A stretch of DNA of 64,000 nucleotides from a virus. Shown piece after piece: positions 41,364 to 58,880 of the stretch. Position 1 is the first letter of the stretch; each line of letters starts with the position of its first letter. Made by a program: the position numbers and the translations under genes. The stretch covers positions 42,371-106,370 of IMG/VR virus record IMGVR_UViG_3300045431_000601; one strand, given 5' to 3'. Below the pieces are notes generated by a model. It searched no databases, was not told the DNA's origin, and was given only the letters and a program-made list of their open reading frames with translations.

Positions 41364-42872
41364 TTATTTAGTAAATACTTCAAAACCTTCTAATTCAAAA
41401 GCTTTAGCGTATTTTTCTTTGACGCTTGGCGTTTGAGCAGAAGAAGAATTGGGTATTTGATTTGAAGCCTTTGTTCCATTGTCAACAGCTTGGTTAACAA
41501 CTTCTTCATTGGATTTCTCTACAACTTCAGACGCTTTTGTTTCTGCTACAACAGCTTCTGTTTTCACTTCTGCTTGCGTAGTTTCTTTTTGCGTCTTTTC
41601 GCTTAAAGCCTTTTTGAAGGCTTTGCTTTTCTCTTTCATGAGAACAGCTAGAGAATCTTTATACTCTTCAAAAGTTTTTTCATCAAGATTCTTAATTTGC
41701 TTTGTTATTACTTGACGATCTTCGTCAGATAAATCATACTCTTCATCAAGAGAAGCCATACGCATATTAAAGGCTTCTTCTTGAGCTTTTGCTGCTTTTT
41801 CAGCTTCAAGCATAGATAATTTTTGTTTTAAATCTTCAACTTCTTTTTTAACGGTTTCGTTATCAGCGCTAATCGCAGATAGCTTTTCGTTAGCAGATTT
41901 TAGATCATTCTCTTTAGAAGTTTTTTCTGCTAAGAATTGATCGTTTACTTTTTTAAGTTCTTCAGAAATAAAATCAGTAATGCTAGAAGCAGTTACTTCT
42001 TTTAGAAGAGCGTCTGTAATTTCTTCGATTTTTGTTATTTTCATATTTATTCTCTCTTTCTTTACATCTAAAACGTCTTTTTGGGAAATATTATTTTCAT
42101 TTGCTTCTGCAGCTAAAGAGTCTGTTTTTTCTTGTTTTACTGCTACACCCTTTACGTCTGCGGCTGGATTTAGGGTTAATCCTACTCCTAAAGGTAATAC
42201 TTTACCAATAACTTGACGATAAATATATTGATTATCGCTTATTTTACCGCTGCCGCCAAAACCTCTTAAATTATTTTCTAATTTAGCTACCTCATTTGCA
42301 TCTGTAATATATTTGCCATTTTCTATATTCTTCTCGTTTTCTTCGAGAACAATTATATTATATTTATCAAATCCTAATTCCCAACTTGCACTTATTTTCA
42401 TGTAATTGTCACTAGTAGGGTCGTTAGAATCTTCTAATTTTTCTGCTAAATCATGGTCTACAATTTTCCATATAATTCCGCCCAAAGTGATATTAAAAGG
42501 AGTTTTTGTGTCTTTGATTTCTTCTTCTTTTAATTCTTCGCTTGATCCAAATTTACTAAAGCTAGAGCTTAATATTGTACCAACAATAATGTTTCTGTTG
42601 TGTTCTATATTAATTGGTTTGTTAATAAAATTTTTAGCTATAGATAGCGCTGTAGGAGTATCAATTACGTCTCCATTTTTATTAACCCTATTGACTACGC
42701 AAGCATCAAAAGCTATAGCAAGTAAATCAATATTGGTTGTAATATCAATTTCAGGGATAAATTTTTTCAATTCATTTAAAGAAGCTACTGAAAGATACTT
42801 ATCTTTTTCTTCGCTTACAATTGGTTTGATTTGAATATTAGAAAATATAGAATTAAATTTTAATTTTTTCAT
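41364..42872 (-). CDS. Prohead protease fused to scaffold
   Basis: VNKNGD, INIEH, ISASWE, GLTLNPAA protease motifs; E/K/A-rich coiled-coil C-terminal half. Confidence 0.8.
   Translation of the reverse strand: MKKLKFNSIFSNIQIKPIVSEEKDKYLSVASLNELKKFIPEIDITTNIDLLAIAFDACVVNRVNKNGDVIDTPTALSIAKNFINKPINIEHNRNIIVGTILSSSFSKFGSSEELKEEEIKDTKTPFNITLGGIIWKIVDHDLAEKLEDSNDPTSDNYMKISASWELGFDKYNIIVLEENEKNIENGKYITDANEVAKLENNLRGFGGSGKISDNQYIYRQVIGKVLPLGVGLTLNPAADVKGVAVKQEKTDSLAAEANENNISQKDVLDVKKERINMKITKIEEITDALLKEVTASSITDFISEELKKVNDQFLAEKTSKENDLKSANEKLSAISADNETVKKEVEDLKQKLSMLEAEKAAKAQEEAFNMRMASLDEEYDLSDEDRQVITKQIKNLDEKTFEEYKDSLAVLMKEKSKAFKKALSEKTQKETTQAEVKTEAVVAETKASEVVEKSNEEVVNQAVDNGTKASNQIPNSSSAQTPSVKEKYAKAFELEGFEVFTK
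42062..42067 (-). promoter_or_regulatory. Putative internal late promoter (AG)ATGTAA for nested scaffold start at 42044
   Basis: Same AGATGTAA variant as upstream of the tail tube; 17 nt before in-frame Met277. Confidence 0.5.
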
Positions 42873-43318
42873 ATCGCATTAGTATTCCTTTCGGGTTCGT
42901 CTAAATAAAGATTGTCTGGATTGTTAAAAGTTATTTTTTCTTCTTCAAGAAGACTATAATCTTTGTCTGACGGCTCTATCGAACTATCTATAACAAAAAA
43001 CAATTTGTTTTTATTCACAACAGAAGAATTTTCAAATTTTCTATTACCTTGTAATATATCAAAATATACATTTATTTTTGCCATAGCATATTCATGGGCG
43101 GTTCTATTTAAATTCAAAGGAATATTATATATAGAATTTTTATATATTCTTTTTAAGTTTGAAAGAGATACTTTCTTTTTTGTCGCAGAGTTAAAAGCCT
43201 TGCATTTACGGTCTAATAAATTAATAATATTTTTTGATATTTCTATTCCATCTTCTTGGCTCGTGATCTGAGTGGTTTGATATAGAAAATTTTCAAATTC
43301 TAAATTAGAATATTTCAT
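42869..43318 (-). CDS. Hypothetical protein
   Basis: 149-aa ORF overlapping the protease start. Confidence 0.7.
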   Translation of the reverse strand: MKYSNLEFENFLYQTTQITSQEDGIEISKNIINLLDRKCKAFNSATKKKVSLSNLKRIYKNSIYNIPLNLNRTAHEYAMAKINVYFDILQGNRKFENSSVVNKNKLFFVIDSSIEPSDKDYSLLEEEKITFNNPDNLYLDEPERNTNAI

Positions 43319-43327
43319 TCTAGGTTA

Positions 43328-43333
43328 TTACAC
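43328..43333 (-). promoter_or_regulatory. Putative late promoter core GTGTAA
   Basis: 9 nt upstream of ATG 43318. Confidence 0.7.
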
Positions 43334-43357
43334 AAAAACCGCCTAGATTTTACCTTA

Positions 43358-46123
43358 TTATGCTCTACAATTTAAACATCCATCTGGCACAGTAAAAGAA
43401 ACAATGGTATATTCTTTGCCTACTTTAGTAGGTGGTCCTATTTCTTTAAACCCAGGGCATGGCTTTCCTCCCACCGCGCAACCTTCGCAATACTCCTCGC
43501 TTGAAACACTTTGACCACAGGCGTATGCTGTTAATGCTCCTTTTGGAGCGTTTACGCAACCCCCAAGGCTATCAAAAACTTTACCTTGTAAAGAAGTGCC
43601 TTTTTTTAGGCAATAAGTTCCCGCGCCAAGCCGACCCCACCCTAGTTCAATATCTTCTGAACCCATAGGATCTTTCATAAACCATCCACAATAATCATCA
43701 CATTTTCCCCCAGTCAAACTCACATAAGTACCGTTATTACAAGTATATTCTCCACTAAAACATCCATATTTTCCAGAAAGATGCTGTGGGTATAGTCCAG
43801 GATATTGTTTCATGTATCTAGAAACTTCTGCTATAGTGTTTGCGCAGGCTTGTTTTTTGCTCGGACAAATATTGCTATTAAAATGCATTTTAACTTGTTC
43901 ATAATTTTGAAAATATTGAATTCTAGAAGTTAATTTCCCTCCATCTAAACAACACCCTTGATTTTTTTCGATATCTATAACTGTATATGGGTGCTTAGGA
44001 AGCAATCTTGGTCTACACTCTTTAGAAGAACAGCATCCTGGGCATGTTTCTGCGTTAGACTTACATATACCTGGCGGACAATAACAATAAGTGCATTTTA
44101 TTGTTTGATCAAAATTCAAACATCTCTTATCTTTTATCAAAAGCTCAGCGTCTCTACAACAATTACAAGGATCATCATCTGTCCCTCTCCAAAATTTTTC
44201 ATCACCAGTTTTATAAACATAACCCATTGGGTCTAACCAACCCGCTTTGTATTCAAAATCATAACCTTTAGGATTACTATGATTATGTGTTAAATCTTCA
44301 TTTATTGTCGGTATTGTGTTTCTAGGAAAAAGATCCCAGCAATCACAATTTTTTTTCTTTAAAAGAGTAATAACGTATAATTTACTATTTTTTATTATTT
44401 TGTACAAACCTGTTCCTATTTGGAACACCTTGTACCCATTTATAAAATCATTGTTTGTTTTTTTGTATTCTTTTTCCACAATCCATTCGTTAGCATCTAT
44501 ACCAAAAACGCTTGTTAAATTTGATTTTAAAATTAAAGTTATTTTTGCTAAAATTGTTTCATCTGAGGATAAATAATGTATGTTAAAATCTGGAAAATGA
44601 GTTTTCATTGAAAAAACAATTTTATTAATATTAGAATTATAAATTTGTGACAATTCTACTAACTTTTCTTCAGAACTTCTATCAGGAACAGATACTTGTA
44701 GTTTTGCATAAAAATTATCTAGATGTTCGGTAATGCTAGGGGGCAGAACCAAAGCTAATGAAAAATTATCGTTTTCAATAAAACTATGTTCTGTACTGTT
44801 ATACACATCATCAAAAGCAAGACTTGTTGGAAAGAATTTTAGATACTCCACATTAGGCTCTTTTTCTAAAGGTATAAAATTAAAATCTAAATCGAAGGAA
44901 GGATCAAACCTATAATCGTATTCACCATCAGCTTGAATTATTTCCCATCCTTTTATTGGAAACGTTTTTGGGTTGCTGGCGCCTAAGCTCCTTAAGAAAG
45001 GAACAATTTTAAAAAAAGGAGCATCTGTATCTTCTGGGTCTGAAATAGCTATAATATTAGCTATTTCCCATCGATTTAGATTGTTTAAGCTATTGTAATA
45101 TATTATATACCCTAGTACATTTCCGTCTGGTTCAGATAGGGTATGAGAGAAAGCAACATACTTATATTTTTTGTTTGTAACGGGATCAATCTCTCCCTCT
45201 TCCTCAAGAAGAGCTTCTTGCTTGCAGCTTTTTAAAATATCTTTGAAGAGAAAATGATAATCATTAATAATAATTTTATTAGTTAAAGCGAATTCTTTGT
45301 TTAAGATTTTAGAAGATATATCTCTTTTTAGCTCAACAGTGGCTGATGTGCCAGGTAAATGCACTTCTTGGTTTCCTTTTTGTACAGATAATGTATAAAT
45401 TTTATTTATAGGATCTGTGCCAGAAGACGTAAGCGTAGAATCTTCTCCTTCTTTAAAAAATTCTATAGTTAGATCTCCTGCTTCAAGAATCTCTAAGTCC
45501 TCACCATTATAATCATACACGGTGCTTCCAACTGATTGTGGCTGATGGCTTGGCGCTGTAGAAGTCGGGGTGGGTAATGGTAAAGATTCAAAAGTTTTAA
45601 AATAACAAATAATTTCTATATATTGAGGAATACCGCAAGCTCCTACTAGCTCAATTTTTACTCTAATTAGATACAATTCGTTGGGGTTTAGATTAATCGG
45701 TTTTTTTATAATATAATTAAAATTAAAATCGTATTTAGATTCTCCACAAGAGCTAAGTCGCGTTAATTTTTTAATATTTATAGGCTGTAAAATATTTAGA
45801 TCTATTGGCAATAAATTTGGATTTAATATTTGATCAGAGTTAGTATTATTTTTTATTTCAATAGATTTAGCGTCTGTTGTAGGCCCTCCTTGTAAAAAAT
45901 ATTTAATAGAATTAGAATAATTAGCTTTTGCAATCTCTACAAAAGAATTAGAGCTAATTACATCATTTCCACCGTTAAGAATTCCTTGTAAAGAAAAAGC
46001 TGTGTTGCTGGTATTTTTTATAATTAACGGACTCCAAGAATTATTAATAATAAAGTTAGTTGTTCCAATTTTTCCGTGTTGAAAATTTACTCCACAGATT
46101 TCAAATGTAGCACAATTATTCAT
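43358..46123 (-). CDS. Large hypothetical protein with Pro/Thr linker and Cys-rich C-terminus
   Basis: 921 aa; about 30 Cys in the last ~330 aa. Confidence 0.8.
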   Translation of the reverse strand: MNNCATFEICGVNFQHGKIGTTNFIINNSWSPLIIKNTSNTAFSLQGILNGGNDVISSNSFVEIAKANYSNSIKYFLQGGPTTDAKSIEIKNNTNSDQILNPNLLPIDLNILQPINIKKLTRLSSCGESKYDFNFNYIIKKPINLNPNELYLIRVKIELVGACGIPQYIEIICYFKTFESLPLPTPTSTAPSHQPQSVGSTVYDYNGEDLEILEAGDLTIEFFKEGEDSTLTSSGTDPINKIYTLSVQKGNQEVHLPGTSATVELKRDISSKILNKEFALTNKIIINDYHFLFKDILKSCKQEALLEEEGEIDPVTNKKYKYVAFSHTLSEPDGNVLGYIIYYNSLNNLNRWEIANIIAISDPEDTDAPFFKIVPFLRSLGASNPKTFPIKGWEIIQADGEYDYRFDPSFDLDFNFIPLEKEPNVEYLKFFPTSLAFDDVYNSTEHSFIENDNFSLALVLPPSITEHLDNFYAKLQVSVPDRSSEEKLVELSQIYNSNINKIVFSMKTHFPDFNIHYLSSDETILAKITLILKSNLTSVFGIDANEWIVEKEYKKTNNDFINGYKVFQIGTGLYKIIKNSKLYVITLLKKKNCDCWDLFPRNTIPTINEDLTHNHSNPKGYDFEYKAGWLDPMGYVYKTGDEKFWRGTDDDPCNCCRDAELLIKDKRCLNFDQTIKCTYCYCPPGICKSNAETCPGCCSSKECRPRLLPKHPYTVIDIEKNQGCCLDGGKLTSRIQYFQNYEQVKMHFNSNICPSKKQACANTIAEVSRYMKQYPGLYPQHLSGKYGCFSGEYTCNNGTYVSLTGGKCDDYCGWFMKDPMGSEDIELGWGRLGAGTYCLKKGTSLQGKVFDSLGGCVNAPKGALTAYACGQSVSSEEYCEGCAVGGKPCPGFKEIGPPTKVGKEYTIVSFTVPDGCLNCRA

Positions 46124-46126
46124 TTT

Positions 46127-47707
46127 TTAAATTAGCCTCGCTCTATTGGCGGGAGTTATTTTAATTTTTACGGGCTTAGGGTTTCCAACGTTAATAAATT
46201 TTTCTTTTAATTTTAAGGTTTTACCATTTGAACCCTGAACTTTAAAATTTGTTGGCATATTTAAAACTTCTAATTTTTGTTGCTTTTTTGATAAAGCTGG
46301 TACAATAACAATATATTTTGTTTCTCGCGAAGAAGTAAAATAACTTTGAGTTTCTGCCGCATCAGCCCCTACTTTGACTACACCGACTTTTTTAAGTATA
46401 AGTCTATTATTAATTAATTCAACTGGAGAGTCAGCTTGATTTATATAAAATTTTATAGATCCTCTACCAGCACCGTAAGGAGTAATATACGGAGTTATAT
46501 CCAGGTCTTGTACGAAATTAAATTGATAATAATTTTTATAATTCAAGATTTCTTGTTCTGGTATTAAACCTGCGGCATAACTTATATCTTTTAAAAAAAT
46601 ATCGTTTTCTGGCCAAATTAAAGACTGAGCAGCTTTGGCTACAGTAATCGTCCCTATTTGGATTTCGCTAGACACGGAGTGATCTTCGTCGGCATCCACT
46701 TTAATTACGACAGATTCTGTCCCTGCATTTTTTACAGAAATATACCCATAATTATCTCCTGGGGATTGATTCAAAGAAAGAATACTTGCTCCAGATTGAA
46801 AATAAGCTTTTCTTTTTTCTCCTGTATAGACTACACCAATATTTTTTTCTCCGAGACTATAATTCTTATTATCAATAAATTTTATCATTTTAAGATCTCT
46901 TTTCATTTTAACGGGAATTATAAAATTATTTTTTACTAAGAATTTACCATTGCCTATATCCGTAGTCCCTCCTCCGTTATAACTTGGCATATACCAATAA
47001 AGTGGAGGAGTTTTTCTATTACTATTAAAAAGATTTTTGCCTTGAGCAAATTGAATAATTAGAGCAAAAGCGTTACGGAATACATTAGGAGAAATAACGG
47101 GGCCAAGAAGATGACACGTATATCCATTCTTTATATAAGAAGAGGCCCATTGATCATGCTGAGACTGTCCCCACACTCTAATCCCATCGTTTGGGTTAAT
47201 GACTACTCCGCCTTTGCTACAGATAGACCCTCCATATTTGCTAAAATTATCAAGATCTGCTTCAAAATCTGTCGTAGTTTCAAATACGTTTTTAATAGAA
47301 GAAAGCCCTACGTTTATTTGATTTGGATCAAACATAAATATAACTGAGCTTTGTCCATTAGTAACATTCGTACGATATAGCCATCTATAGAATGGAAAAA
47401 CGCCTGGTTTTTGTTTATAAATTTCCCAATAAAAACTATAAGCATCTGCAGATATCCCCACTAATCTTAATCCGCCTCCAGTATATGAATCCTCATTATT
47501 AATCTTGACTGGCCATACAGGAGGAATTCCATTAAAATTAGCGAAAGCTAAAGCTCCACCATCGGAATGTACAACAAAATCTTTTCTTTCTTGAATTATA
47601 AAATTCTGTGTTTGTCCAGTAAGCAGATTGGTTCTTGTCCATTGCGTCCATGATCCACCTAAACCTAAGGTTGGTTTGAGAGAAAATGTTTGGGCTTCGT
47701 TGTTCAT
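46127..47707 (-). CDS. Ig-like repeat protein
   Basis: AKAAQSLIW...NRLILKKVGVVKVGADAAETQSY repeat unit. Confidence 0.7.
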   Translation of the reverse strand: MNNEAQTFSLKPTLGLGGSWTQWTRTNLLTGQTQNFIIQERKDFVVHSDGGALAFANFNGIPPVWPVKINNEDSYTGGGLRLVGISADAYSFYWEIYKQKPGVFPFYRWLYRTNVTNGQSSVIFMFDPNQINVGLSSIKNVFETTTDFEADLDNFSKYGGSICSKGGVVINPNDGIRVWGQSQHDQWASSYIKNGYTCHLLGPVISPNVFRNAFALIIQFAQGKNLFNSNRKTPPLYWYMPSYNGGGTTDIGNGKFLVKNNFIIPVKMKRDLKMIKFIDNKNYSLGEKNIGVVYTGEKRKAYFQSGASILSLNQSPGDNYGYISVKNAGTESVVIKVDADEDHSVSSEIQIGTITVAKAAQSLIWPENDIFLKDISYAAGLIPEQEILNYKNYYQFNFVQDLDITPYITPYGAGRGSIKFYINQADSPVELINNRLILKKVGVVKVGADAAETQSYFTSSRETKYIVIVPALSKKQQKLEVLNMPTNFKVQGSNGKTLKLKEKFINVGNPKPVKIKITPANRARLI

Positions 47708-47716
47708 AATTATATT

Positions 47717-47722
47717 TTACAC
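47717..47722 (-). promoter_or_regulatory. Putative late promoter core GTGTAA
   Basis: 9 nt upstream of ATG 47707; forms the Val-stop of the upstream gene. Confidence 0.7.
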
Positions 47723-48820
47723 TTTATACGTAATATTTAAATTTATTGATTTTGAAATAGGATTAAGAAGATTATTCCCTGGATTACTAGCCGTTAAAAT
47801 TACTTGTCCATTCTTTAAAATCATCCCCTGATTGCCTCCAGAAATCATTAAAACTTCTGGATTGCTACTAGTATATGTTATTGGTAGATTTTGATCTGTT
47901 GTTTTAGGGAGATATATTATATTATTTATATTATAAATTTTATTTCTAAAGAAAAAGTTATTTTGTAATGATGGGGAATCAAAAAAGCCCCAAGAAAATC
48001 CAGCAATGTCTTTAGCTCTAATATAATAAGTTTGTCCTCTTATAGCGTCGAAACTAATTGTAGTAAAAGGCTTATCAAACTCATTCAGTCTCTGCGTAAG
48101 AGATTGTCCAATATAAGTTAAGTAATCTCCTAGAAGATTTTCAAAAACATCATGATCTATACCTTGATTTTGATCTTTTTCTATAATTTTTTCAACATTA
48201 GAATTATATGCGCTTATTCTTCCATATTTTTTTCCTGGAGAGAGAATTATAGAAAAATAATACTTTCCACTTTTCGAGGGTTTAAAACTATACCACGCAG
48301 GCGCATCTAAATCAAGGTTAACTAATGTTGTACCAAAGTCTTTTTCTGGTAAAGGTTCAGAAGATAAAGCGTCAATATTTTTTAGTGCTTTACTTTTATA
48401 TCTTATATATTCAACACCGGCTCCAATATGGGTATTGGTTGAATAGTCTGTGCATCCTTCGCATGTATATTCGACGTGCTCCTTTGGTAAGGTGTCTAAT
48501 ATATAATCATTTCTTAAATCAATTAACTCTAGATCGTTAGATAATTCAACAAAATTTTGTAGATTGTAATTTTGTTCAAAAAAAGGAGAAGAATTGTTAT
48601 TAGATAGAAATAATTGATACGGTCTAAAAGAATCAGAGTTTGTTATTATAAATAATGGAGGTCCTCCTAAATATTTTTTATTATTCCAAACATATTCTTT
48701 ATTACAAAATATTGTATGACAATATTCTATATTTTCACATAATGGATTTGTAATTTTGTCGCAGATATTATTTAAATATTTAAAATTATTAATCGGTATT
48801 AATTGCCAAATATAGTTCAT
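47717..48820 (-). CDS. Protein with PPC-like beta-sandwich and C-terminal Ig-like repeat
   Basis: AWYSFKPSKSGKYY...GQTYYIRA; LPITYTSSNPEV...GQVILTASNPGN. Confidence 0.7.
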   Translation of the reverse strand: MNYIWQLIPINNFKYLNNICDKITNPLCENIEYCHTIFCNKEYVWNNKKYLGGPPLFIITNSDSFRPYQLFLSNNNSSPFFEQNYNLQNFVELSNDLELIDLRNDYILDTLPKEHVEYTCEGCTDYSTNTHIGAGVEYIRYKSKALKNIDALSSEPLPEKDFGTTLVNLDLDAPAWYSFKPSKSGKYYFSIILSPGKKYGRISAYNSNVEKIIEKDQNQGIDHDVFENLLGDYLTYIGQSLTQRLNEFDKPFTTISFDAIRGQTYYIRAKDIAGFSWGFFDSPSLQNNFFFRNKIYNINNIIYLPKTTDQNLPITYTSSNPEVLMISGGNQGMILKNGQVILTASNPGNNLLNPISKSINLNITYKV

Positions 48821-51800
48821 AGATCTTCGTTCGTTTCAAATTTTGCACAAAAACTTTCTAAAGTTTTAGGAATAGAATTTATTTTAATAGATTTAATTTT
48901 ATCCACAGGATACACGCTGTGAGACAATAAGATAGAGTCATCTATTTTTAAAAGGTTATCATCTTTTTCTTGATTAGTTGCTTCTTCATCTAAAACGGCA
49001 AGATTTCTATTTATATTTAGACAATTAACGCATACCGTAGATGATTCGGTACCAATATATTCTCCTGTAGAAGAGCATTTTGTCTCAATTTGATAATTAA
49101 AGCATTCATTTTCTAATGCACTAAATTTATCTAATGAAATCTGTCTTATTTCTTGAGGCGCAAGACATGAATCTAGCATAACAACGTTTTTCTTTTCAGG
49201 AGTTAAACCATTCGAATACTTAATTCTTTGTCCTGCGCAGTTTTCAATCGATGTAGAAGAATTATTTTTAATAAAAATTTTACAATTACTTAACATCTTC
49301 TCTTTTTCTTCTTGAGAAGCTTTAATAAGCAAGCAGGGTTTACTGTCTTTAGGAACAAAAATTTTACAACAATAATGTAATTCTTCTGGCAAAGAAAGAC
49401 TCTCTGCAAATTGATATGCCATATATTTAATTTGAGGAACACAAGTATTTGTAATCGACCCTAAAGAGATATTAGAATAGATAATACATGAATCAATTAT
49501 ATTATTTTCGTTTATAAAACTTTCCGATACTGCATAAGAAAGCTCTTCAGAAACAAGACTCTCTTTTAAACTTCCGCGCCAACGAATTAACATATAATTA
49601 TTCAACTGATTGTTAATTTTAAAAATTTGATCGGAAGCTGAAGCGCAACAATTAGAAGAGTTTTCTTCTGTGTTATTTATAATATTTTCTATAAAATTAC
49701 GATTTATAAAATCACTATATAAATTATAAAGATTTTTATTAAGAATTTTTAAATTTTTATTAGATTTTAAGTATTCCGCATTAATTAATGCAAAACCTCC
49801 GTCATTATCGGAAAATGTAATGCTTTTTTGTACATAAAATGGTATTTGCAAACCCTGATAGTAATCAACTTTTAATTCATATAAGCCTGCGGGGTCAGTA
49901 TTTAAACCTAGGTCATTAAAAAAATAATCAGAAGAGGGTATTTGGCCAGAGACTTCCAACGTTTTAACTGATGAGTTATTAATAGAAGTAATAATAGAAA
50001 AATATATATTTTCTGTTTTTTGATCCCAGGAAGAGTCTCCATCAACGGTTGCTTGTAATTTAATTAAAGGTTTATGTTGTAAAATATTTATATTAAATTT
50101 AACTAAACCGCTTGCATCTGGTCCAGAAATTCTAGATATATTAACGCAATCTGAATCTAAGCTAGTCAAATTGATTTGTTTTTTAGAGCTAGATTTTATT
50201 TCAAATATAAAATTATCTCCCAAATTTTTTGGAGATATAGGATTATATAAAAGTTCTTGAATTTTATTTTCGATTATTTTAAGCCTAAAATGGGTAGAAG
50301 CAGAAGCCCACCTATCTGTTGCAAATTGTTCCAAAGAGATTACATATTCACCAATCTGATCGGAATTTACAACAATTTGTTTGCCATCAAATATATATAT
50401 ATTATTTGTATTAATTTCTTCTTCTTTTAAACCAGAGTTCGGATTATAAGTATAAACTTTTAATCGGAAATCCGCAGAAGAATCACTTGTCATTTCAAGT
50501 ACAGTTGAAATACCTTTTTTCGCTTGGACCTGAGGCGCTAAGGATATAATCTTATTAGCTTGCTCTGGTAATATAATTTTTTGGTTGTTAAAGTTTAGAT
50601 ATAGATTTGGTATAGCAGTTTTAATTTCTAATGTTCTAAAAATCTCCAATGGCGCATAAATATCATTGCCAGGTACTTTTATGCTTAGCGTAACAATTCC
50701 AGGCTCTTTTAGTTCCCACCCTTTTGATGCTGAATCTGGATAAGCAACAAGAGGATTAGAGCTATTTAGAATTATTCCTGATGTCGTATTCCCCAAAGAT
50801 ATATTAAAATCTGTATAAAAATATCTTCTTGCTAAAGTTAAGATTTCTGGAAAATCTGTCATTGAATATGTCTGCGTTTTTCCTTGAGCAATTATATTCA
50901 ATAAAATTGGTTCTGCAGTGCTATAAACAGTATCGCCTTGCTGGGTAATAAGAACTTGATATTGGCCAGTTGTTTTTATAAACAAACCATATTGATCCGT
51001 CAATGAATTATAGCCCCATTTTATAGGCGGAGAAAGTGGAGAGTTGAAACGTCTTGGGTCAGCCGCAGCCGTAAAACCTTCTTCTTCATAAAACGATCCT
51101 CCTTGACCGATTTTTATTGTTACGGGTAATCCCGACGAAGTAGATATCGGTAAAGACACAAAATGTCCTAATCCACTAAAATTAGAGATATTTACTTCGA
51201 TAGTATTATTAGTCCCGATTAGAGGATAATGAAATACGATAATATTTGGTAATTTAGATTGTATTTCAAAAGACACAGAATATGGCCGCAAATTAAGATC
51301 CCCTTCCAAAGCCGCAGTAATTACAGCTTTACCTTTACCAAAAAATATTAATTTATTGCCATCTTGTATTTTTGCTACATTAATATTAGAGCTAGTATAT
51401 TGTATTAATTTTCCTTGCCTTGTTGTTCCGTCGTCCGAAAAGATTTGTCCATATTTAGGCAAAACGTATTCTCTACCAAAAACATAATCCGATTGAGTTG
51501 TGCTTAGTCCAACAATCTTTTGCTCTTCTGAAGCTATTTTTATTTCAACTATTTTTACTAAATTAGCTTCTATAGGGACATTAGCAAAGACTTTTTCTGG
51601 TGAATCAATTAAATAATATCCCTGTGGTCCATTTTTTATTAGTTTTGGCGCAATAATTTTTGGTTTTAAAGTTCTCCCTTTTTCAATAAATTTAATTTTT
51701 ACTGTTCCTTTATTTATAAAAGTCAAAGAAGGATTTTTTTGCAAATCCCCTTCTCTTTCAGAGACGAGATTCACTCCATCAACAACTGTCCATTTAATGT

Positions 51801-52695
51801 TAGACATCTCTAAAAAAGCTTGAGGAACAGTTTGGGCTTCAGTTTCCGTAGCCTGTATATTTAAGTAAGAAGGTAAAATTTCTGTAGTGATTAGATTTAT
51901 CCTTCCTGGTCCACAACCCCCTCCGTAATTACAAGGTCCAGTATTAAAACATCCTCCAGTAGTAGCGCATGGCAAATTACTAGGTTTAATAAAATCTTTT
52001 AAATTTATAGTAGAATTAATGTTTACAACTCTTGGCAGAGACTCTATTAATGAATAGTTTTTTTGATAATTATCATAATCATATACAGTATCATTTTCGG
52101 GTTGTATTTGATCAATTTTTTTATAATAAATACTAATTTTTAAATTTCTTTGGTCACAAATTCTTTCAATATAGTTTTTATTACAGTAGTCTTGAGAGCC
52201 CGAACTAGCGCAGCCTTTATTCGGTATAGTCTGGCGAATTGATGGGTCATAAACCCATTCTCCGCAAGGGCAATCACAAAGTAATTCTAAACCTAAAGAG
52301 CTTTTAATATATTCGACGGGAGGTATGCCTGGACCCATGCGAGGAGTACCACCTACCCCTGAACCCCAATAATCATATTTTAAACTATTAAAACCAAAAA
52401 GCCCATAACTACCATTGCACTTGCAAGCGTCGCAACCAGCCCTTAATTTTGCTTTGTTGAGCAAATCTGTTATAGAATTAGCTTTATAAGGATATGGTCC
52501 AAGCGTCTTTAATAAAGAACCTGAGCACGTCCATTCTTCGCTGCAACTAGACGTCCAACTTCTCGGCATTTCTTCTACGACATAAACCACAAGATAATCT
52601 GGATTAGAAAGCTCTAAAGGGAATGTCTGGTCGTAATAATTAAGCGTTGAACCCTTAGGCTCTAATCCTTTTGCTTCTTGACAACCTGAATTCAT
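48817..52695 (-). CDS. Large Ig-like repeat protein with Cys-rich segments
   Basis: 1292 aa; several YTSSNxxVA...GxxxITA...GxxxY units; Cys-rich N-terminus. Confidence 0.8.
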   Translation of the reverse strand: MNSGCQEAKGLEPKGSTLNYYDQTFPLELSNPDYLVVYVVEEMPRSWTSSCSEEWTCSGSLLKTLGPYPYKANSITDLLNKAKLRAGCDACKCNGSYGLFGFNSLKYDYWGSGVGGTPRMGPGIPPVEYIKSSLGLELLCDCPCGEWVYDPSIRQTIPNKGCASSGSQDYCNKNYIERICDQRNLKISIYYKKIDQIQPENDTVYDYDNYQKNYSLIESLPRVVNINSTINLKDFIKPSNLPCATTGGCFNTGPCNYGGGCGPGRINLITTEILPSYLNIQATETEAQTVPQAFLEMSNIKWTVVDGVNLVSEREGDLQKNPSLTFINKGTVKIKFIEKGRTLKPKIIAPKLIKNGPQGYYLIDSPEKVFANVPIEANLVKIVEIKIASEEQKIVGLSTTQSDYVFGREYVLPKYGQIFSDDGTTRQGKLIQYTSSNINVAKIQDGNKLIFFGKGKAVITAALEGDLNLRPYSVSFEIQSKLPNIIVFHYPLIGTNNTIEVNISNFSGLGHFVSLPISTSSGLPVTIKIGQGGSFYEEEGFTAAADPRRFNSPLSPPIKWGYNSLTDQYGLFIKTTGQYQVLITQQGDTVYSTAEPILLNIIAQGKTQTYSMTDFPEILTLARRYFYTDFNISLGNTTSGIILNSSNPLVAYPDSASKGWELKEPGIVTLSIKVPGNDIYAPLEIFRTLEIKTAIPNLYLNFNNQKIILPEQANKIISLAPQVQAKKGISTVLEMTSDSSADFRLKVYTYNPNSGLKEEEINTNNIYIFDGKQIVVNSDQIGEYVISLEQFATDRWASASTHFRLKIIENKIQELLYNPISPKNLGDNFIFEIKSSSKKQINLTSLDSDCVNISRISGPDASGLVKFNINILQHKPLIKLQATVDGDSSWDQKTENIYFSIITSINNSSVKTLEVSGQIPSSDYFFNDLGLNTDPAGLYELKVDYYQGLQIPFYVQKSITFSDNDGGFALINAEYLKSNKNLKILNKNLYNLYSDFINRNFIENIINNTEENSSNCCASASDQIFKINNQLNNYMLIRWRGSLKESLVSEELSYAVSESFINENNIIDSCIIYSNISLGSITNTCVPQIKYMAYQFAESLSLPEELHYCCKIFVPKDSKPCLLIKASQEEKEKMLSNCKIFIKNNSSTSIENCAGQRIKYSNGLTPEKKNVVMLDSCLAPQEIRQISLDKFSALENECFNYQIETKCSSTGEYIGTESSTVCVNCLNINRNLAVLDEEATNQEKDDNLLKIDDSILLSHSVYPVDKIKSIKINSIPKTLESFCAKFETNEDL

Positions 52696-52704
52696 AATTA
52701 TATT

Positions 52705-52710
52705 TTACAC
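52705..52710 (-). promoter_or_regulatory. Putative late promoter core GTGTAA
   Basis: 9 nt upstream of ATG 52695. Confidence 0.7.
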
Positions 52711-52719
52711 TCCATATTT

Positions 52720-55700
52720 TTATTCAGTTGTTGTAATTCTATAAAAGTTAGAGACATATGGAGCATATTCTGAATAAAAATTAAAATCTTGATTTATATT
52801 GCAAGCTACTATTGTTGGTGTAGGTGTTGGTGTAGGTGTTGGTGTAGGTGTTGGTGGAGAGTGACTAACTGGAGCCGAAATATATGCAGACAACTTAGGC
52901 CATGGCGGCTCCTGGTCTCGTTTCCAAGTATACGTTTTAATAACTTCGTTAATTTTTCTAATTTCTGCATATCCAGGCGAGCTATTATACGGATCAGTAA
53001 AATTAACTTCAAACGTGCCACCAGGTATTACTTCGTAAGTATATATTTTTAATATTCCTCCTGAAAAAAATTCAGGACTTTTAGTTGGAAAAATAACTGG
53101 AAAATTTGATAAATTTAATAATGGATCTCCGTATCTTACATAAAAACCTTGTTGAAGATTAGACATTAAAAAAGTTATTTCGGTTTTTGAAGGAATAGTA
53201 GACGTTGGAGTAGACGTTGGAGTAGACGTTGGAGTAGACGTTGGAGTAGACGTTGGAGTAGACGTTGGAGTAGGCGTTGGAGTAGGCGTTGGCGGCAGAA
53301 TAAATTTATAATCAAATTTTGTATTTAAAATTTTATTTCCATTATCTAATTTCCATCTTGCATCTTCCCATGGATTAGTTACATATCCAATAGGCGAATA
53401 AGATTCTAGTATTGAATTGTCTGCTGTAGATATTTTTTTAAGCTGCCATCCAAAAGTTAAATTTTTAATAAAAAATACTTTTTCTTGAAGATTTGTTTGA
53501 TTAGTTTTTTTAATAAAAACCTTAGAGTTGTCTCCCTGAATGGGCGACCAATCATAAAAGTAATCACCTGTTAGGCTGACTTCGTCTGGACTATGGGTAG
53601 TCGCTATGCTGTTAATATATATCGTTTTATAAAAAGACTCTTCAGGTGCTACTGCGGGCGGAATAACAAGATTTGATTTAAATTTAATATCTATAAACTT
53701 ATTCGAGGGGAGTTTAGATTTATAGATTTTAAATAATTTTAGACTAATTTTATCTAAAATAGTGATTGCCGCTTCTTTTGTTTCGCTTAGATAATACTGA
53801 TTTTCTGGCATGTTAACTAGGATTTTACAGATACCTGTATTTTTTAATAGAATTCTTTGAGAATCAAGGATCTCTACTTTATCTGATGGGGTAAAGCTTA
53901 TGCTTGAGAGGGCGACCTCTTCTTTTGAGTTAAGGTTTATTAAATCTTTTAAATAAATAATTGAACCTTTTTTCCAAGCAGGATTTATTACAAAATTTAT
54001 ATTTCTTGCTTTTTTAACAAAAGACAGATTCTCTCTCACATTAACGGGCGAATAATCCGCATTACCTTCTTGTTCTGCAATTAAAGATACATTTCCTGGT
54101 TTAAGAATTGTATATTTATTTTCAATAATTCTTAGGATTTGTTCATTTGAGCTAGAGTACTTAATTAATAGTCCTGGTAAAAATTGCCCAGTCGTAGAAT
54201 CTCGATCTACTTGAGTGTTTTTAGATAAGACTCCTTCAAAAGGATATGAGTTAAACTCTAAAACTTTAGTTTTAAATTCTGGGATAGTTTGTTTCTTAAA
54301 GTTTTGTACAACAGGTATAACTAATTTTGCCTCTTGAAAATTTTCTGTCTCTGGAGAATTAATAATTATATAATAATTATTAGACTTTTTAGCTGACACA
54401 TTACCGAAATTATCTATAGATGCTACGTTTAGATTAGAGACAGCAAAAGTATAATTTGTCTTCTCTAGATTTAAAGAGAATTCGGTTGCTCCAAAATCCA
54501 CCCTTTTAAATGTCTCTTCTGTTAGATTTAAAAATATTTGAGGAGCAATATTCCTTATAAGAAATCCAGGGATCTTAAATGAATTTACGACTGTGTAATA
54601 GTTATTTTTAATAGGAGCATTTTTTGGATTAAGATTTTGGACGATTTGCGTGCCTAATCCTAATTGATTTAATATGACACTAAACCTTTGAGAAAAAATA
54701 TTTAATTTTTTATATCTTGCGCCAGAAGCATCTTCACAGAGCCATGGATAGCAAGAAAGAGAATTATTCTTGTTAGAATAAGACCAAATATCTTCTATAT
54801 TTTCATAATTATTCGTTACAAAATTATAACAAACATCGCTGCAATTAGAACCCGTATTGACATAGGGTACAACCCCATATCTAGGTGTTCCGTCTTCTTC
54901 TAAAAGGATTGAATTCACAAAAGGGATAACAGAAGACCCATTTTTTCTATCAAAAATATTAAATTTACTTAAATTATTTTTAATAATCGTGCTGTATATT
55001 TCAGATTTGTAATTAATTTTTCTTGGGTTGGGGAATACAGTTAATATAAATTTAATATTATTAAAGTTAATTTCTGCTATTCCTGAGCTCCTAAAATTTA
55101 ACCTCGTAACTTTTTTTGGAGCATAAATGTTCCAATTCGTCTTTAATTGTAAATTTGGGGTTTTCTCGGGAAACGAAATAAAAGCATCATAAGAATAAAT
55201 CGGAGTCTTCTGATCATTGTATTTCTCCAAAGGAGTGCGATTTGATAGGGCTTGCTCTAATTCTTTAGGGTAAGATAAAATATGTCTTGGTCCATTTTTA
55301 TTAAAAAGTCTTATATTTTTTATATAAGAAGTTTCTGAACCGTCAATTTCTGTAGATTTTAAATTATTTGTTTCTATTACAATTGGGCTCATCTCTGGTA
55401 AATCTGCAGAATACAAATAACCAACATAAATTTTATCATCGATAGATGTTATTGCTATAGGCTTATAAACTGGAGAAAATAAAGAAGATGGATATTTTGC
55501 TGAAGCTTTTAGCATTAAAACTCCTATAGAATTTATTTTTAAATAATATTTATTATCTATAACTAAAACCTCTCCAATCGAAGGATGACTAGAAGTTAAA
55601 TCTATTTCAGATTGGCTTATATTTTTTAAAGTAATATCTAATAAAATTTTTTGATCAAGAGAATTATTTTTTAAGATTGAGGTCGGGACCTTATCAAAAA

Positions 55701-58047
55701 GCACTTTTTGATCTAGGAAATCAAATTTTTCTAAATAAAGAGTTAAAGAGCTTTCTGCAGGATCATATTTAAAATTTCCAGGATGAGAAGCTTTAATTGT
55801 AATCGGTCCAGAAAAGAACGGATCAATGGCTTTGATAAAATTACCCGTTATTTGTACAGCAGGAGAATCTGAGGTATAAGCTATATCCATCCTTAAAGAA
55901 GGATCTATAGAAGCGTCTTGCGTAGCATCTGAAGTAGCTTTTAGTTCTAAAGGAATATTATATACAAGCGGATCTTTTGGCAACATAAAATTAATTGTTT
56001 GTGAATATTTTTTGACAAAAAATGTATATACGGTTTCTTTAGCGTAAAATCTGGCGGTTTCTTCTTGACGAACAATTAACACGTATTCTCCTGCAGCCTG
56101 AGATATTAATGAAAAACGGTTATTGTCAATTTTCATTAACATTAATTGTGGATGTGGGTCCGTTACCGATATGCCTCCATCAGAATCAGAATTAATAATT
56201 AAAACCTTTCTTTCTTTTATGAATATAGGATCGGGCAAAGACATTAAAAGATTCGGAGTCTTTTTCAAGATTAATAAATTTATTGTTAATTCTGAATATT
56301 CATATTTTTCGTCTTCTTTACAGAATATTTTTAAAGAATTCCAACCTGGCTTCAAGGGTTTTGCGAAAAATATGTCTTTATTATTAATTTTTTTTGTATA
56401 CACTTCAAAGCTTTCATTTGATATAGCCTGTATTTCTGCGTCAGAATAAATTTTTGGAATACCATAAAGCTTTGGGGGATAAGAGCAAGGGTGCCCAGGA
56501 ATACATTCGGGAGTATTTGCGTCTACTAGAAGTGGATCATTTAAAGAAAATTCTTCTTCTAGAATGACCGTCGGAATATTTGGCAAATGCTGAAAAATGT
56601 TTTTGGCCTTACTAATTCTAAAAGACTGAATCGCTTCTTCGTCAATTGCATAAAAACTATCTCCTAAAGAATACGCTTTAATTTTTGCTATCCCAGCTTT
56701 AAGAATCTTGACTTTATTCCCTATTATAGATATTATGTCTGGCGTTAAACTTACAAAATTAATAGGAAAATTATTCGGCGTAGACGCTTCAATTAAAAAT
56801 TCAGTATCTATAGCGTAAGTTTTGTCTTCTATAATTTTAAAATTTATTGGCTGATAAGTAGATAATCCATATACATCTACTTGTCCTGATTCTTGCCTTT
56901 TACAGGTTCTTCCGCAAACATTGCTATTCAAGCAAGTTTCATCCCATAAATTAATTTTTTTAATAAAATTTGATTTCCCAGGAAAATCATAACCATTTAG
57001 ATCTTGAGCAGAACAAATATGGTAGCTACTCCCGCACATAAAAATACAACGACTTTTAACTTCTATATTAGATATAAACCTTGTATATTTTGCATGTGGA
57101 AAAAATTTATCACAATTCCCGCATGTCGGAGGCCAGCATCCAAAATATTCTCGAACTCTAGCAACACTATTTAAATCTATTTGGTCAAGCCTTGCCGCCG
57201 CTACATAGACTGGTTTGCTCATAATCCCCTCTGCGTCATCCTCATAGTACCCAGGACCATTAATGGTGCAACAATTACAACCTTGTGGAGCGCCATACGC
57301 AGACATTCGCCTTGAAACTTTTGATCTAAATGCCCAAGTCTGAGTCGCTGGAGCAATTTCAAAACTTTGAATAACTTTTTGGTTGCTTAATTTTACTTCT
57401 CCGCTAGCTACTGGTAACCTAGGGACATAACAATCTGAACCCTTATAACAGGAATAGTTTCCATAAATTTGCCCATATTGGTCCGATTGTGGAAATGACG
57501 CAGGAATAGGGCAGCGACCATAAATACCAGGCGTCCATCCTCCAGGACATATTCCTCTACTTGGTATTCTTTGACTTATTCTTAAAATTTTTACTGATCC
57601 ATTTTCTAGAATTTCTTCTGTGTAGGCTATTAGATTAAATTTTCCTTCTTTTAAGATGTTTAATTTGTTGCCAACAATCGTCGCTAAATTTTCGTTAGAA
57701 ACTTTATATTTTATTGGAATAGTTGTTTCTCCAGATATTTCTTCTGAATTTTGACAATACATTCCTCCAGGGTGAAACGAACTAGGAATACAGTCGTATT
57801 TTCCAATAATTTTATAAGAACTAAATTGCGGAAGATTAATTGAGTCTCCAACTTTTAAAGAGCTTATCTGCGGCAATTGAATGAAATGATCGGTAGCCGA
57901 GCCATCAGCTATAATAGGAGTCGATGTAGGTGTTGAAACTAGACGAGGAAAGCTTGGATTTGGTATAGACGACAAGCTGGACTCAGAATTGATATTCTGA
58001 AGAATGTCTAATACACTATTAATTGTTGACCTAAGAACATCTTGCAT
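52720..58047 (-). CDS. Very large Ig-like repeat protein with Cys-rich insertions and PT linkers
   Basis: 1775 aa; Q(P/T)INF...GNKxxIxxxG...Y repeats; (PTST)n and (PT)n tracts. Confidence 0.85.
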   Translation of the reverse strand: MQDVLRSTINSVLDILQNINSESSLSSIPNPSFPRLVSTPTSTPIIADGSATDHFIQLPQISSLKVGDSINLPQFSSYKIIGKYDCIPSSFHPGGMYCQNSEEISGETTIPIKYKVSNENLATIVGNKLNILKEGKFNLIAYTEEILENGSVKILRISQRIPSRGICPGGWTPGIYGRCPIPASFPQSDQYGQIYGNYSCYKGSDCYVPRLPVASGEVKLSNQKVIQSFEIAPATQTWAFRSKVSRRMSAYGAPQGCNCCTINGPGYYEDDAEGIMSKPVYVAAARLDQIDLNSVARVREYFGCWPPTCGNCDKFFPHAKYTRFISNIEVKSRCIFMCGSSYHICSAQDLNGYDFPGKSNFIKKINLWDETCLNSNVCGRTCKRQESGQVDVYGLSTYQPINFKIIEDKTYAIDTEFLIEASTPNNFPINFVSLTPDIISIIGNKVKILKAGIAKIKAYSLGDSFYAIDEEAIQSFRISKAKNIFQHLPNIPTVILEEEFSLNDPLLVDANTPECIPGHPCSYPPKLYGIPKIYSDAEIQAISNESFEVYTKKINNKDIFFAKPLKPGWNSLKIFCKEDEKYEYSELTINLLILKKTPNLLMSLPDPIFIKERKVLIINSDSDGGISVTDPHPQLMLMKIDNNRFSLISQAAGEYVLIVRQEETARFYAKETVYTFFVKKYSQTINFMLPKDPLVYNIPLELKATSDATQDASIDPSLRMDIAYTSDSPAVQITGNFIKAIDPFFSGPITIKASHPGNFKYDPAESSLTLYLEKFDFLDQKVLFDKVPTSILKNNSLDQKILLDITLKNISQSEIDLTSSHPSIGEVLVIDNKYYLKINSIGVLMLKASAKYPSSLFSPVYKPIAITSIDDKIYVGYLYSADLPEMSPIVIETNNLKSTEIDGSETSYIKNIRLFNKNGPRHILSYPKELEQALSNRTPLEKYNDQKTPIYSYDAFISFPEKTPNLQLKTNWNIYAPKKVTRLNFRSSGIAEINFNNIKFILTVFPNPRKINYKSEIYSTIIKNNLSKFNIFDRKNGSSVIPFVNSILLEEDGTPRYGVVPYVNTGSNCSDVCYNFVTNNYENIEDIWSYSNKNNSLSCYPWLCEDASGARYKKLNIFSQRFSVILNQLGLGTQIVQNLNPKNAPIKNNYYTVVNSFKIPGFLIRNIAPQIFLNLTEETFKRVDFGATEFSLNLEKTNYTFAVSNLNVASIDNFGNVSAKKSNNYYIIINSPETENFQEAKLVIPVVQNFKKQTIPEFKTKVLEFNSYPFEGVLSKNTQVDRDSTTGQFLPGLLIKYSSSNEQILRIIENKYTILKPGNVSLIAEQEGNADYSPVNVRENLSFVKKARNINFVINPAWKKGSIIYLKDLINLNSKEEVALSSISFTPSDKVEILDSQRILLKNTGICKILVNMPENQYYLSETKEAAITILDKISLKLFKIYKSKLPSNKFIDIKFKSNLVIPPAVAPEESFYKTIYINSIATTHSPDEVSLTGDYFYDWSPIQGDNSKVFIKKTNQTNLQEKVFFIKNLTFGWQLKKISTADNSILESYSPIGYVTNPWEDARWKLDNGNKILNTKFDYKFILPPTPTPTPTPTSTPTSTPTSTPTSTPTSTPTSTIPSKTEITFLMSNLQQGFYVRYGDPLLNLSNFPVIFPTKSPEFFSGGILKIYTYEVIPGGTFEVNFTDPYNSSPGYAEIRKINEVIKTYTWKRDQEPPWPKLSAYISAPVSHSPPTPTPTPTPTPTPTIVACNINQDFNFYSEYAPYVSNFYRITTTE
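52813..52855. repeat. 12-bp coding repeat encoding (PT)n
   Basis: tgttggtgtagg x~3.5. Confidence 0.9.
53197..53292. repeat. 12-bp coding repeat x8 encoding PTPT/PTST linker
   Basis: agtagacgttgg x6 plus agtaggcgttgg x2. Confidence 0.9.
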
Positions 58048-58059
58048 TATACAATATGT

Positions 58060-58065
58060 TTACAC
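58060..58065 (-). promoter_or_regulatory. Putative late promoter core GTGTAA
   Basis: 12 nt upstream of ATG 58047. Confidence 0.7.
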
Positions 58066-58076
58066 ACATTATATAA

Positions 58077-58880
58077 TTAATAATATGGAACTTTCTTTGG
58101 TAATCCACCTACATTTATCTCTATATATCCTGCTGGGGCATTGGGTAAACTTGCTGAGGGATAGGTCAGTCCCACAAAATTAAACTTCTGAAATATTCCC
58201 GTTCCATTGATTACAGATATATTCCCTCCATCGATCTCTAATGCGTGAGTAGCTATTTTATTCTTATCTCCTAAAAATATTTTAGCATCTTGAAGACACA
58301 TATTCGTCCCTGATCCTCCCACAAATTCAAGATTTTTAATTGATAAGGAATCTACGTCAAAAGCTCCACTGACGGATATATTTCCAGAAACATATAGATT
58401 GTCTCTTATATTTACTTCTCCAAAAATATCCACAAATTTTGTGGGTTTTGCATAAGATCCAGTAAAAACAGAAAGCTTGGCTTGTTCGACTCCGACGCCA
58501 ACTCCTCGATCTAGAGCTCCTAATCTATGGCCAAAAAACATTTTTAACGATATAGGCTGATTAGTCTCTGTAGTATTTAAAAAATACAAATCATTTCCAC
58601 TTGGATTTGAATATATGCCAAACACCGTATTCTCGCCATGAATAGCGAAATTATTTAAATATTTTGCTCTAAATGTCTCTGAAATAGATTTTCCATCTAA
58701 ACTATATTGATATAATCTAAAATCATTCTTAACTTTTAGGTCTAATCTGTCTAAGGTTAGCGATTGTCTATCTTTGTGTTCTCCAGACGTAAAAGCCGTG
58801 ATCTTTAATTGCGGCTCGTTGCCTCTGTAGTTTGCAGAGATTAAACTAATATCTTTTTCTGGTATAAAAGCGCTCATCAT
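58077..58880 (-). CDS. Hypothetical fibre-like protein
   Basis: NLYVSGNISVSG shaft-like repeat; C-terminal PAGYIEINVGG...KVPYY. Confidence 0.6.
   Translation of the reverse strand: MMSAFIPEKDISLISANYRGNEPQLKITAFTSGEHKDRQSLTLDRLDLKVKNDFRLYQYSLDGKSISETFRAKYLNNFAIHGENTVFGIYSNPSGNDLYFLNTTETNQPISLKMFFGHRLGALDRGVGVGVEQAKLSVFTGSYAKPTKFVDIFGEVNIRDNLYVSGNISVSGAFDVDSLSIKNLEFVGGSGTNMCLQDAKIFLGDKNKIATHALEIDGGNISVINGTGIFQKFNFVGLTYPSASLPNAPAGYIEINVGGLPKKVPYY

Follow-up and report, generated by a model that had tools for sequence, protein, structure and literature searches.

The DNA analyzed here, called the window below, is a stretch of 64,000 nucleotides comprising bases 42371–106370 of a linear IMG/VR virus record (IMGVR_UViG_3300045431_000601; 106,370 bp, estimated to be ~70% complete). 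Five tandem genes on its minus strand encode the proteins P0001–P0005, in which degenerate immunoglobulin (Ig)-like units are mixed with dense clusters of Cys. This array is probably, though far from certainly, a lineage-specific, late-expressed module of fibers or adhesins displayed on the virion, the association with virions being what we infer from the genes and their setting. Ig-like phage proteins are a known theme and the class is not new. What is unusual is (i) the scale of the array, ~4,900 codons or ~14% of the recovered genome, (ii) its orphan status among billions of proteins and ~50 sampled related loci and (iii) the way in which proteins without a secretion signal combine degenerate Ig units and dense Cys clusters.

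Ig-like units and Cys-rich segments

The open reading frame (ORF) list contains the five tandem genes with exactly the sizes and coordinates given in an earlier note on this DNA (Table 1), and we take them to be real because up to 1775 codons stay open at a G+C content of ~31%. That value holds throughout the window, and the array matches the rest of the genome in this respect. Scans of the whole proteins against Pfam, PHROGs and NCBIfam gave no meaningful match. Neither a signal peptide nor a transmembrane helix was found in any of the five (maximum 19-residue hydropathy 1.44); proteins of this kind, lacking a signal peptide, would therefore exit from the cell only via lysis.

A repeat unit of ~85 aa is present in the array proteins, and it provides the only link between P0001 and the databases. 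Among 5.8 billion sequences, the sole relative of P0001 is P0006, a 1179-aa protein that carries six regular QxIxF repeats as well as a signal peptide and MBG_2 domains; it is collinear with residues 399–775 of P0001 by BLASTP (four to five units) and has single repeats up to 40% identical to residues 398–482. P0006 itself has no relative in the genome collection searched. We built a profile (A1) from the five clearest units of the array, and this profile matches the four Big_2 repeats of a bacterial teneurin-like protein of solved structure (9ifo; E = 2e-5), with weaker matches to the Ig domains of S-layer Sap and LigB-like proteins (E = 0.026–0.06). The alignment with 9ifo spans the SSNP..VA..G..tA core of Big_2, and the similarity to solved Big_2 domains includes the core motif (Y/W)xSSnxxVAxv..G.vta...G.atItA. 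The Pfam model for Big_2 (PF02368) did not match the whole array proteins at E up to 0.1, single array units gave only aBig_2 at E = 0.13 and the canonical repeats of P0006 reached 22.2 bits, where the Big_2 cut-off is 22.8. The unit thus stands outside Big_2 in the formal sense, because it falls below Pfam's own threshold, and we regard it, on profile comparison and modeling, as a very diverged Big_2-type Ig-like domain.

An unbiased hidden Markov model (HMM) built from the six P0006 repeats alone finds 14 units at scores of at least 0 bits in the five proteins, compared with 0.2 per set of residue-shuffled control proteins, and 10 units at scores of at least 4 bits, compared with 0.02 per shuffled set. 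These are spread over all five proteins (seven in P0001, three in P0002, two in P0004 and one each in P0003 and P0005), and one further unit in P0002 is found by an HMM that includes window units. The repeat noticed earlier is therefore confirmed, but not its restriction to four of the five genes. Across 16 aligned units, which are 13–28% identical to the reference unit, columns average 23% identity and none is invariant, so that the constant scaffold suggested in the earlier note is not borne out.

A model of unit 3 (P0001 483–597) made with AlphaFold 2 (AF2), using the 16 paralogous units as the alignment, has eight strands at a predicted local distance difference test score (pLDDT) of 65, rising to 76–83 in the C-terminal half. 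Foldseek searches with this model reached cadherin, PKD and titin Ig domains at E = 0.015 or weaker. VIA returned Z-scores of 4.8–6.3, which are below 8 and not decisive, and its neighbors are exclusively Ig-like sandwiches; the structural neighbors of the model include cadherin, filamin, LigA4 Big (Z = 4.9), intimin D00–D0, Sap and the phage SU10 tail. The single-sequence AF2 model of P0001 residues 1–900 is unusable (pLDDT 30), and no usable structural neighbors came from the P0005 model in the ESM Atlas (pLDDT 0.33). The nearest ESM Atlas feature clusters of P0004 are Big_2 proteins (score 0.76–0.82), which we treat as a lead only; sequence searches with P0004 and P0005 against the PDB found no match.

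The four Cys motifs named in the earlier note are all present at the coordinates given there, which correspond to P0001 residues 85–98, 166–208 and 514–523 and P0002 residues 242–262. Its proposal that such Cys-paired insertions occupy comparable loop positions holds for two of them, both in P0001 and both in the B–C loop of an Ig unit; the GICPGG... and PCATTGGC... motifs are both at domain boundaries, an outcome that had been named beforehand as speaking against knob insertions in loops. The ~30-aa insertion with DCIPSSFHPGGMYC is assigned to the B–C loop of unit 1 because GD-SINLPQ, on its N-terminal side, aligns to HMM nodes 17–24 and TTIPIKYKVSN..., on its C-terminal side, to nodes 28–64 (32 bits). 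In unit 3, ECIPGHPC, part of ECIPGHPCSY (P0001 514–523, 56479–56508), occupies the same columns as the B–C insertions of other units (alignment A2), and the AF2 model has a strand at unit residues 24–27 followed by a low-confidence segment (29–54) that holds it and that ends ahead of another well-modeled strand. Both insertions thus sit between HMM nodes ~24 and ~28. The Cys-bracketed stretches are 8–14 residues long with one Cys pair each and are modeled at pLDDT <50. They are also alike, [DE]CIP..HP..C, which suggests one ancestral insertion copied along with its unit. Insertions without Cys are found in the same loop in P0001 682–775, P0001 1262–1348 and P0004 361–471, and the B–C loop is the general indel hotspot of the unit family.

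As for the other two motifs, GICPGG..RCP..SCY..DCY (57424–57552, P0001 166–208) opens a 216-aa free Cys-rich domain after unit 1, and PCATTGGCFNTGPCNYGGGCG (PCATTGGC...CG) appears to lie just before a first Ig strand, as judged from a partial HMM match and by eye. The free Cys-rich domains that the note had described between units are indeed there, as segments between or beside them. Cys is strongly clustered in such segments of P0001, P0002 and P0005, which have no detectable similarity to one another. Some contain CxxC pairs that look like zinc-ribbon ligands, for example the CEGC-x33-CLNC that ends P0005.

Start motif, genomic slot and orphan status

The hexamer GTGTAA occurs at 36 sites in the whole record, half as often as expected from composition (~73), and 24 of these sites, on the coding strand, precede a start codon by 5–30 nt, mostly in front of structural-looking genes. 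GTGTAA heads P0001, P0002 and P0004 and also the 149-aa gene after P0005, the tape measure gene, a 785-aa tail gene, a collagen-like gene and both of the hyper-Cys genes described below. It is probably a late promoter or start element of the phage; a promoter/terminator consensus scan was uninformative. The GTGTAA heads, the overlap of P0002 with P0003 and the 3-nt gap between P0004 and P0005 suggest three cassettes (P0001; P0002–P0003; P0004–P0005) that would be co-regulated with the structural genes. Among the tailed-phage genes on the minus strand of the window are those for a tape measure of 2191 aa (PHROG E = 1e-44) and for collagen-like tail fibers (E = 2e-111), which lie downstream of the array on the same strand; a DNA polymerase III alpha-type gene is on the plus strand.

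We collected relatives of this phage with the conserved 502-aa gene downstream of the array, obtaining 11 IMG/VR and 40 metagenome loci, some of them the same contig in both. The 502-aa gene is 33–71% identical in these loci, mostly ~60%. None of the ~50 related loci encodes P0001–P0005, and no Ig unit was found within their fetched flanks. Two borders are conserved around the position of the array: a lysozyme-type gene upstream, 72–81% identical in relatives, and a block of the 149- and 502-aa genes downstream. In the 20 loci with both flanks, the slot between these borders measures 0.55–3.0 kb and holds 1–3 ORFs, whereas in this phage it measures 18.2 kb and holds ten. This synteny identifies the array and the four genes at 58077–61037 as private cargo in a known small variable slot. 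As a block, the slot genes are absent at this position in relatives, and weak homologs were found only for the 299- and 132-aa proteins, in few relatives and at other positions. The sole family match among the nine cargo genes is that of the 293-aa protein (60156–61037) to DUF6734 (E = 3e-33). In four relatives (L003:7909–9261, L010:7058–8332, L013:7959–9263 and L039:1148–2935) the slot is filled by a single unrelated ORF of 424–450 or 595 aa, and in five others (L005, L008, L009, L011 and L012) fiber-like genes of 924–1483 aa lie directly upstream of the 502-aa gene on the opposite strand.

An exhaustive HMMER search found no homolog of P0005 among 1.84 billion representative proteins, and the sole database match of P0002 is itself. 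A word-based search with P0001 395–870 gave no match in its length class, and neither P0004 in IMG/VR nor P0001 1–620 in metagenome contigs has relatives once their own record is excluded. Among 50,697 cultured-phage records, there is no DNA match to the array and no tblastn match to a conserved 369-aa protein of this phage. The phage lineage is novel. Its relatives may come from outside the gut, to judge by the names of their contigs (JGI Ga... contigs, 'Hain' groundwater).

Proposed virion display, the N-terminal tag and alternative readings

On the reading that we favor, the array is an accessory module lodged in the small variable slot that has the lysis genes on one side and, on the other, the conserved block upstream of the tail genes. 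Its five products are modular chains of diverged Big_2-type Ig units, Cys-rich segments, Pro/Thr linkers and non-Ig terminal domains; they would be made late alongside the structural proteins, get out of the cell through lysis alone and be borne by virions as flexible fibers or decorations. Such fibers could give weak multivalent adhesion to glycans of the host surface or the environment, in the manner of T4 Hoc. The Cys clusters would most likely stabilize small modules, either with Zn (at CxxC pairs such as CEGC..CLNC) or through disulfides formed after release, and the two B–C Cys pairs of P0001 would be one inherited insertion in two paralogous units rather than a diversified set of paratopes. 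If the proteins are virion fibers, they illustrate how an otherwise conserved phage can accommodate, at one defined slot, an adhesion module that is both very large and private. The Cys modules also raise the question of how such proteins fold in the bacterial cytoplasm.

The outline of an Ig-like phage protein with an adhesin role, which the earlier note had drawn, is supported, with an adhesin as the most natural reading. Fraser and colleagues are said to have found in 2006 that Ig-like domains of phages occur almost only on structural proteins, and in the bacteriophage adherence to mucus (BAM) model, reportedly put forward by Barr and colleagues in 2013, phages adhere through Ig-like decoration proteins. 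T4 Hoc resembles the array proteins in being a phage-encoded Ig-like chain from a dispensable accessory gene, thought to adhere weakly to glycans. It differs in having four domains and ~40 kDa, whereas the array comprises five genes, the longest of 1775 codons, with Cys-rich modules and Pro/Thr linkers; there is no sequence similarity between the two, and for the array proteins attachment to the virion is a proposal. Bacterial surface proteins such as P0006 have the same ~83-aa QxIxF or Big_2-like repeat type, but in P0006 the repeats are regular, well conserved and free of Cys insertions and a signal peptide is present, whereas the phage proteins lack a signal peptide and have much more degenerate units. 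Gut crAss-like and Flandersviridae-related phages have been described with modular Ig-like adhesins (BACON, PKD, Big_2 and unspecified Ig-like) that match Pfam models and recur at ≥80% identity across many viral operational taxonomic units (PMC13370021). The likeness lies in several large modular Ig proteins per genome and in the shuffling of domains between proteins; the array proteins differ from these adhesins in having no Pfam match or close relatives and in carrying Cys-rich segments.

Several points weigh against virion display. The placement of P0001–P0005 on virions draws on context, namely the late-type start motif, the strand, the position and the missing signal peptides. The neighboring 'head' genes match no family or PDB entry, so that the name of the module is positional, and the slot abuts the lysis genes, so the cargo could be non-structural. 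Cys-rich proteins from a reducing cytoplasm are unusual in virions; in this phage, Cys makes up 0–0.4% of the core structural proteins. The whole-protein and N-terminal models, at pLDDT 30–33, are uninformative. Finally, the N-terminal tag described next could be an internal packaging signal instead.

The tag is a concrete handle on docking and the most interesting thread in these data, although most of it lies outside the coordinates of the array. The N-terminus of P0001, STINSVLDILQNINSESS, holds a 12-residue motif, INxILDILQNIN, and the consensus [IL]Nx[IV]L[DN][IV]LQN[IL][NY] is common to four otherwise unrelated proteins of the phage. A Ser/Thr/Pro linker comes after the tag in all four, and GTGTAA precedes every tagged gene. 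When IMG/VR was scanned for the tag with degenerate DNA, only spurious short ORFs turned up. Besides P0001, the tagged proteins are a tandem hyper-Cys pair of ~940 aa each (15.1% Cys for G000 865–3723 and 13.6% for 3751–6552) and a Cys-rich protein of 291 aa (G000 18978–19853). The hyper-Cys pair is built partly from a ~55-aa module, CxCxxC...C...C...CC....CW.PC, and has no Pfam match and no signal peptide. We considered whether the Cys-rich segments of the array are degenerate copies of this module and rejected the idea, as no match rose above noise; the free Cys-rich domain of P0001 matches neither the unit HMM nor the HMM of the module. In the display reading, P0001 would dock by a 20-aa N-terminal tag at the same site as the tagged hyper-Cys proteins.

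The main competitor to virion display, itself unlikely, is that the five are non-virion late proteins freed at lysis, acting as soluble matrix-binding proteins or decoys for host debris, exopolysaccharide or particles, or having an intracellular role before lysis. The slot directly follows the lysozyme gene, the genes are dispensable across the whole related lineage and, with no signal peptides, release could come only through lysis, all of which would suit soluble products. The long Ig chains with Pro/Thr linkers fit this explanation less well, as does a start-proximal motif in common with the tape measure and other structural genes, and the tag in four proteins suggests docking to a common partner.

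The tag can also be carried further, to a proposal that we consider quite unlikely as it stands: the short N-terminal helix would dock otherwise unrelated proteins that resemble extracellular-matrix proteins (P0001, the hyper-Cys pair and the 291-aa protein) on the virion, and the Cys modules and B–C staples would be binding elements folded by oxidation or by metal. Folding of the Cys would possibly be aided by the phage's thioredoxin-linked genes and by glycosyltransferases. A thioredoxin gene (WCGPC; PF00085, E = 3e-22; G000:C1:9199–10230, L071) overlaps the gene for a 102-aa three-helix protein with CHEC and comes after that for a 139-aa protein with CSC, a neighborhood that may be relevant to the folding of the phage's Cys-rich proteins. 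If tag-based display were true, the phage would be assembling a swappable, stapled adhesin coat by a route that has not been described before.

A very doubtful alternative takes the tag as a capsid-targeting signal, perhaps cut by the prohead protease, so that the proteins would be packaged inside the head and ejected, as for the T4 internal and phiKZ inner-body proteins. The 12-residue tag is followed by Ser/Thr-x-Glu-like residues in three of the four proteins and the genes are just upstream of the presumed prohead protease gene, an assignment that is itself positional. Against this, the residue after the tag varies (E in three, K in one) and only P0001 among the five carries the tag. Ig chains with Pro/Thr linkers are moreover typical of exposed, extended proteins and are not known among internal phage cargo.

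The earlier note itself had favored a constant Ig scaffold with variable disulfide- or metal-stapled knob loops, forming a diversified adhesin repertoire, and this we now consider highly improbable. Two P0001 units do have Cys-bracketed insertions in the same B–C loop, that loop is the indel hotspot of the family and the five paralogous genes differ greatly. The scaffold, however, has diverged as far as the loops (mean column identity 23%), domain boundaries account for two of the four named motifs and only two of ~16 units have a loop with a Cys pair, the two being alike rather than diversified; the B–C insertions elsewhere are free of Cys. The knob of bovine ultralong complementarity-determining region H3 is carried by the F–G loop on a beta-ribbon stalk, has 2–5 disulfides and is somatically diversified. 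The two are alike in having a small loop insertion with Cys at the N-terminal end of an Ig-type sandwich. The array insertions, for their part, have one Cys pair in the B–C loop, with no stalk, no multi-disulfide F–G mini-domain and no diversifying mechanism.

The note had seen no reverse transcriptase in the window, and this extends to the 106-kb record (~70% of the estimated genome), where PF00078 has no match at E up to 1 while controls were detected. No template/variable repeat pair and no direct repeat >48 nt occurs in 42800–61100, where the only DNA repeats are the Pro/Thr-linker tandem repeats, whose 12-nt units are likely length-polymorphic, and a 20-nt start junction. A phage adhesin whose scaffold stays stable while its binding residues vary would recall BPP-1 Mtd, diversified by a diversity-generating retroelement, but here there is no reverse transcriptase, no template/variable pair and no signature of a C-type lectin fold. 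The exact sequences of P0002–P0005 recur on five contigs, which may be copies of one assembly, and their 90% clusters record no variant member; the exact P0001 sequence, unlike these, is absent from a collection of 15 billion proteins.

Feature coordinates and flanking genes

Table 1. Features of the array, its surroundings and the tagged proteins. Positions are those of the window unless G000 or L070 is given; aa, amino acids.
Feature	Position	Strand	Remarks
P0001	52720–58047	minus	ORF of 1775 aa
P0001, order of parts		minus	tag at N-terminus; Ig unit bearing a Cys-pair loop; free Cys-rich domain; run of ~5 Ig units; central non-Ig part; three further Ig units; small domain flanked by two Pro/Thr linkers
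N-terminal tag of P0001, INSVLDILQNIN	57985–58026, residues 8–21	minus	followed by Ser/Thr/Pro linker
Ig unit 1 of P0001	57550–57885, residues 55–166	minus	~30-aa insertion in B–C loop
Cys-pair loop 1, DCIPSSFHPGGMYC	57754–57795, P0001 85–98	minus	C86, C98; B–C loop of unit 1
Free Cys-rich domain of P0001	56902–57549, residues 167–382	minus	16 Cys, including CNCC, CGNC
Five consecutive Ig units of P0001	55441–56859, residues 397–869	minus	BLASTP against P0006 and HMM matches
Cys-pair loop 2, ECIPGHPC	56485–56508, P0001 514–521	minus	C515, C521; B–C loop of unit 3
P0001 HMM units	residues 101–154, 398–482, 613–682, 701–775, 1171–1252, 1285–1348, 1363–1435	minus	HMM from P0006 only
(TSTP)n linker of P0001	53197–53292	minus	perfect 12-nt × 8 tandem repeat
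(PT)n linker repeat of P0001, second	52813–52856	minus	perfect 12-nt repeat × 3.7
P0002	48817–52695	minus	ORF of 1292 aa
P0002, parts	residues 1–180, 242–262, 264–903, 1016–1283	minus	N-terminal Cys-rich (12 Cys); 4-Cys element; ~5 Ig units; C-terminal Cys-rich (15 Cys)
PCATTGGCFNTGPCNYGGGCG in P0002	51910–51972, residues 242–262	minus	four Cys at spacing 6; appears to precede first strand of Ig unit
P0003	47717–48820	minus	ORF of 367 aa; start overlaps P0002 stop by 4 nt
P0003, parts	residues 20–123, 284–367	minus	N-terminal Cys cluster including CEGC; middle domain without assignment; clear Ig unit (87.9 bits)
P0004	46127–47707	minus	ORF of 526 aa; only 2 Cys
P0004, parts	residues 273–360, 361–471	minus	weak Ig units; N-terminal half without assignment
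P0005	43358–46123	minus	ORF of 921 aa; starts 3 nt after P0004
P0005, parts	residues 176–250, 593–919	minus	weak Ig unit; C-terminal third with 30 Cys, ending CEGC-x33-CLNC
GTGTAA before P0001	58060–58065	minus	18 nt ahead of start
P0002 start junction, GTGTAAAATATAATTATGAA	52691–52710	minus	GTGTAA 15 nt ahead of start
P0004 start junction, GTGTAAAATATAATTATGAA	47703–47722	minus	identical 20 nt; GTGTAA 15 nt ahead of start
GTGTAA in window	58065, 52710, 47722, 43333, 39157, 38824, 37648, 34038, 31637, 20023, 60161, 63124	minus	
Upstream slot border	61050–61754	minus	234-aa lysozyme-type gene; Pfam Pesticin/lysozyme, E = 4.4e-9
Four further slot genes	58077–61037	minus	267, 299, 132, 293 aa
Downstream slot border	41364–43318	minus	conserved 149-aa gene (GTGTAA-headed) and 502-aa gene
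Tagged proteins besides P0001	G000 865–3723, 3751–6552, 18978–19853		
Tags of these proteins (approximate)	G000 3660–3702, 6490–6525, 18999–19040		
Hyper-Cys pair	G000:C1:865–6552 = L070:65–2923, L070:2951–5752	minus	outside window

The conserved genes downstream of the slot (39627–42872) encode proteins of 502, 196 and 369 aa, which have no match in Pfam, PHROGs or the PDB, even as family profiles. The names protease-scaffold, decoration and capsid are positional only; 'prohead protease/scaffold' for the 502-aa protein and 'major capsid protein' for the 369-aa protein were considered and are unconfirmed, as the three databases gave only coiled-coil noise. The head proteins of this lineage are very diverged. 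Upstream, as seen in relative L007, there is a gene for TerL (Terminase_6N, E = 2.5e-9). Downstream come a weak tail-tube match and the tape measure gene.

At the other side of the slot, upstream of the lysis genes, a minus-strand ORF (63165–63998) runs off the end of the contig. Pfam recognizes three repeats of BppL_N, the N-terminal domain of lower baseplate protein, in this fiber-like gene (E = 2.7e-14).

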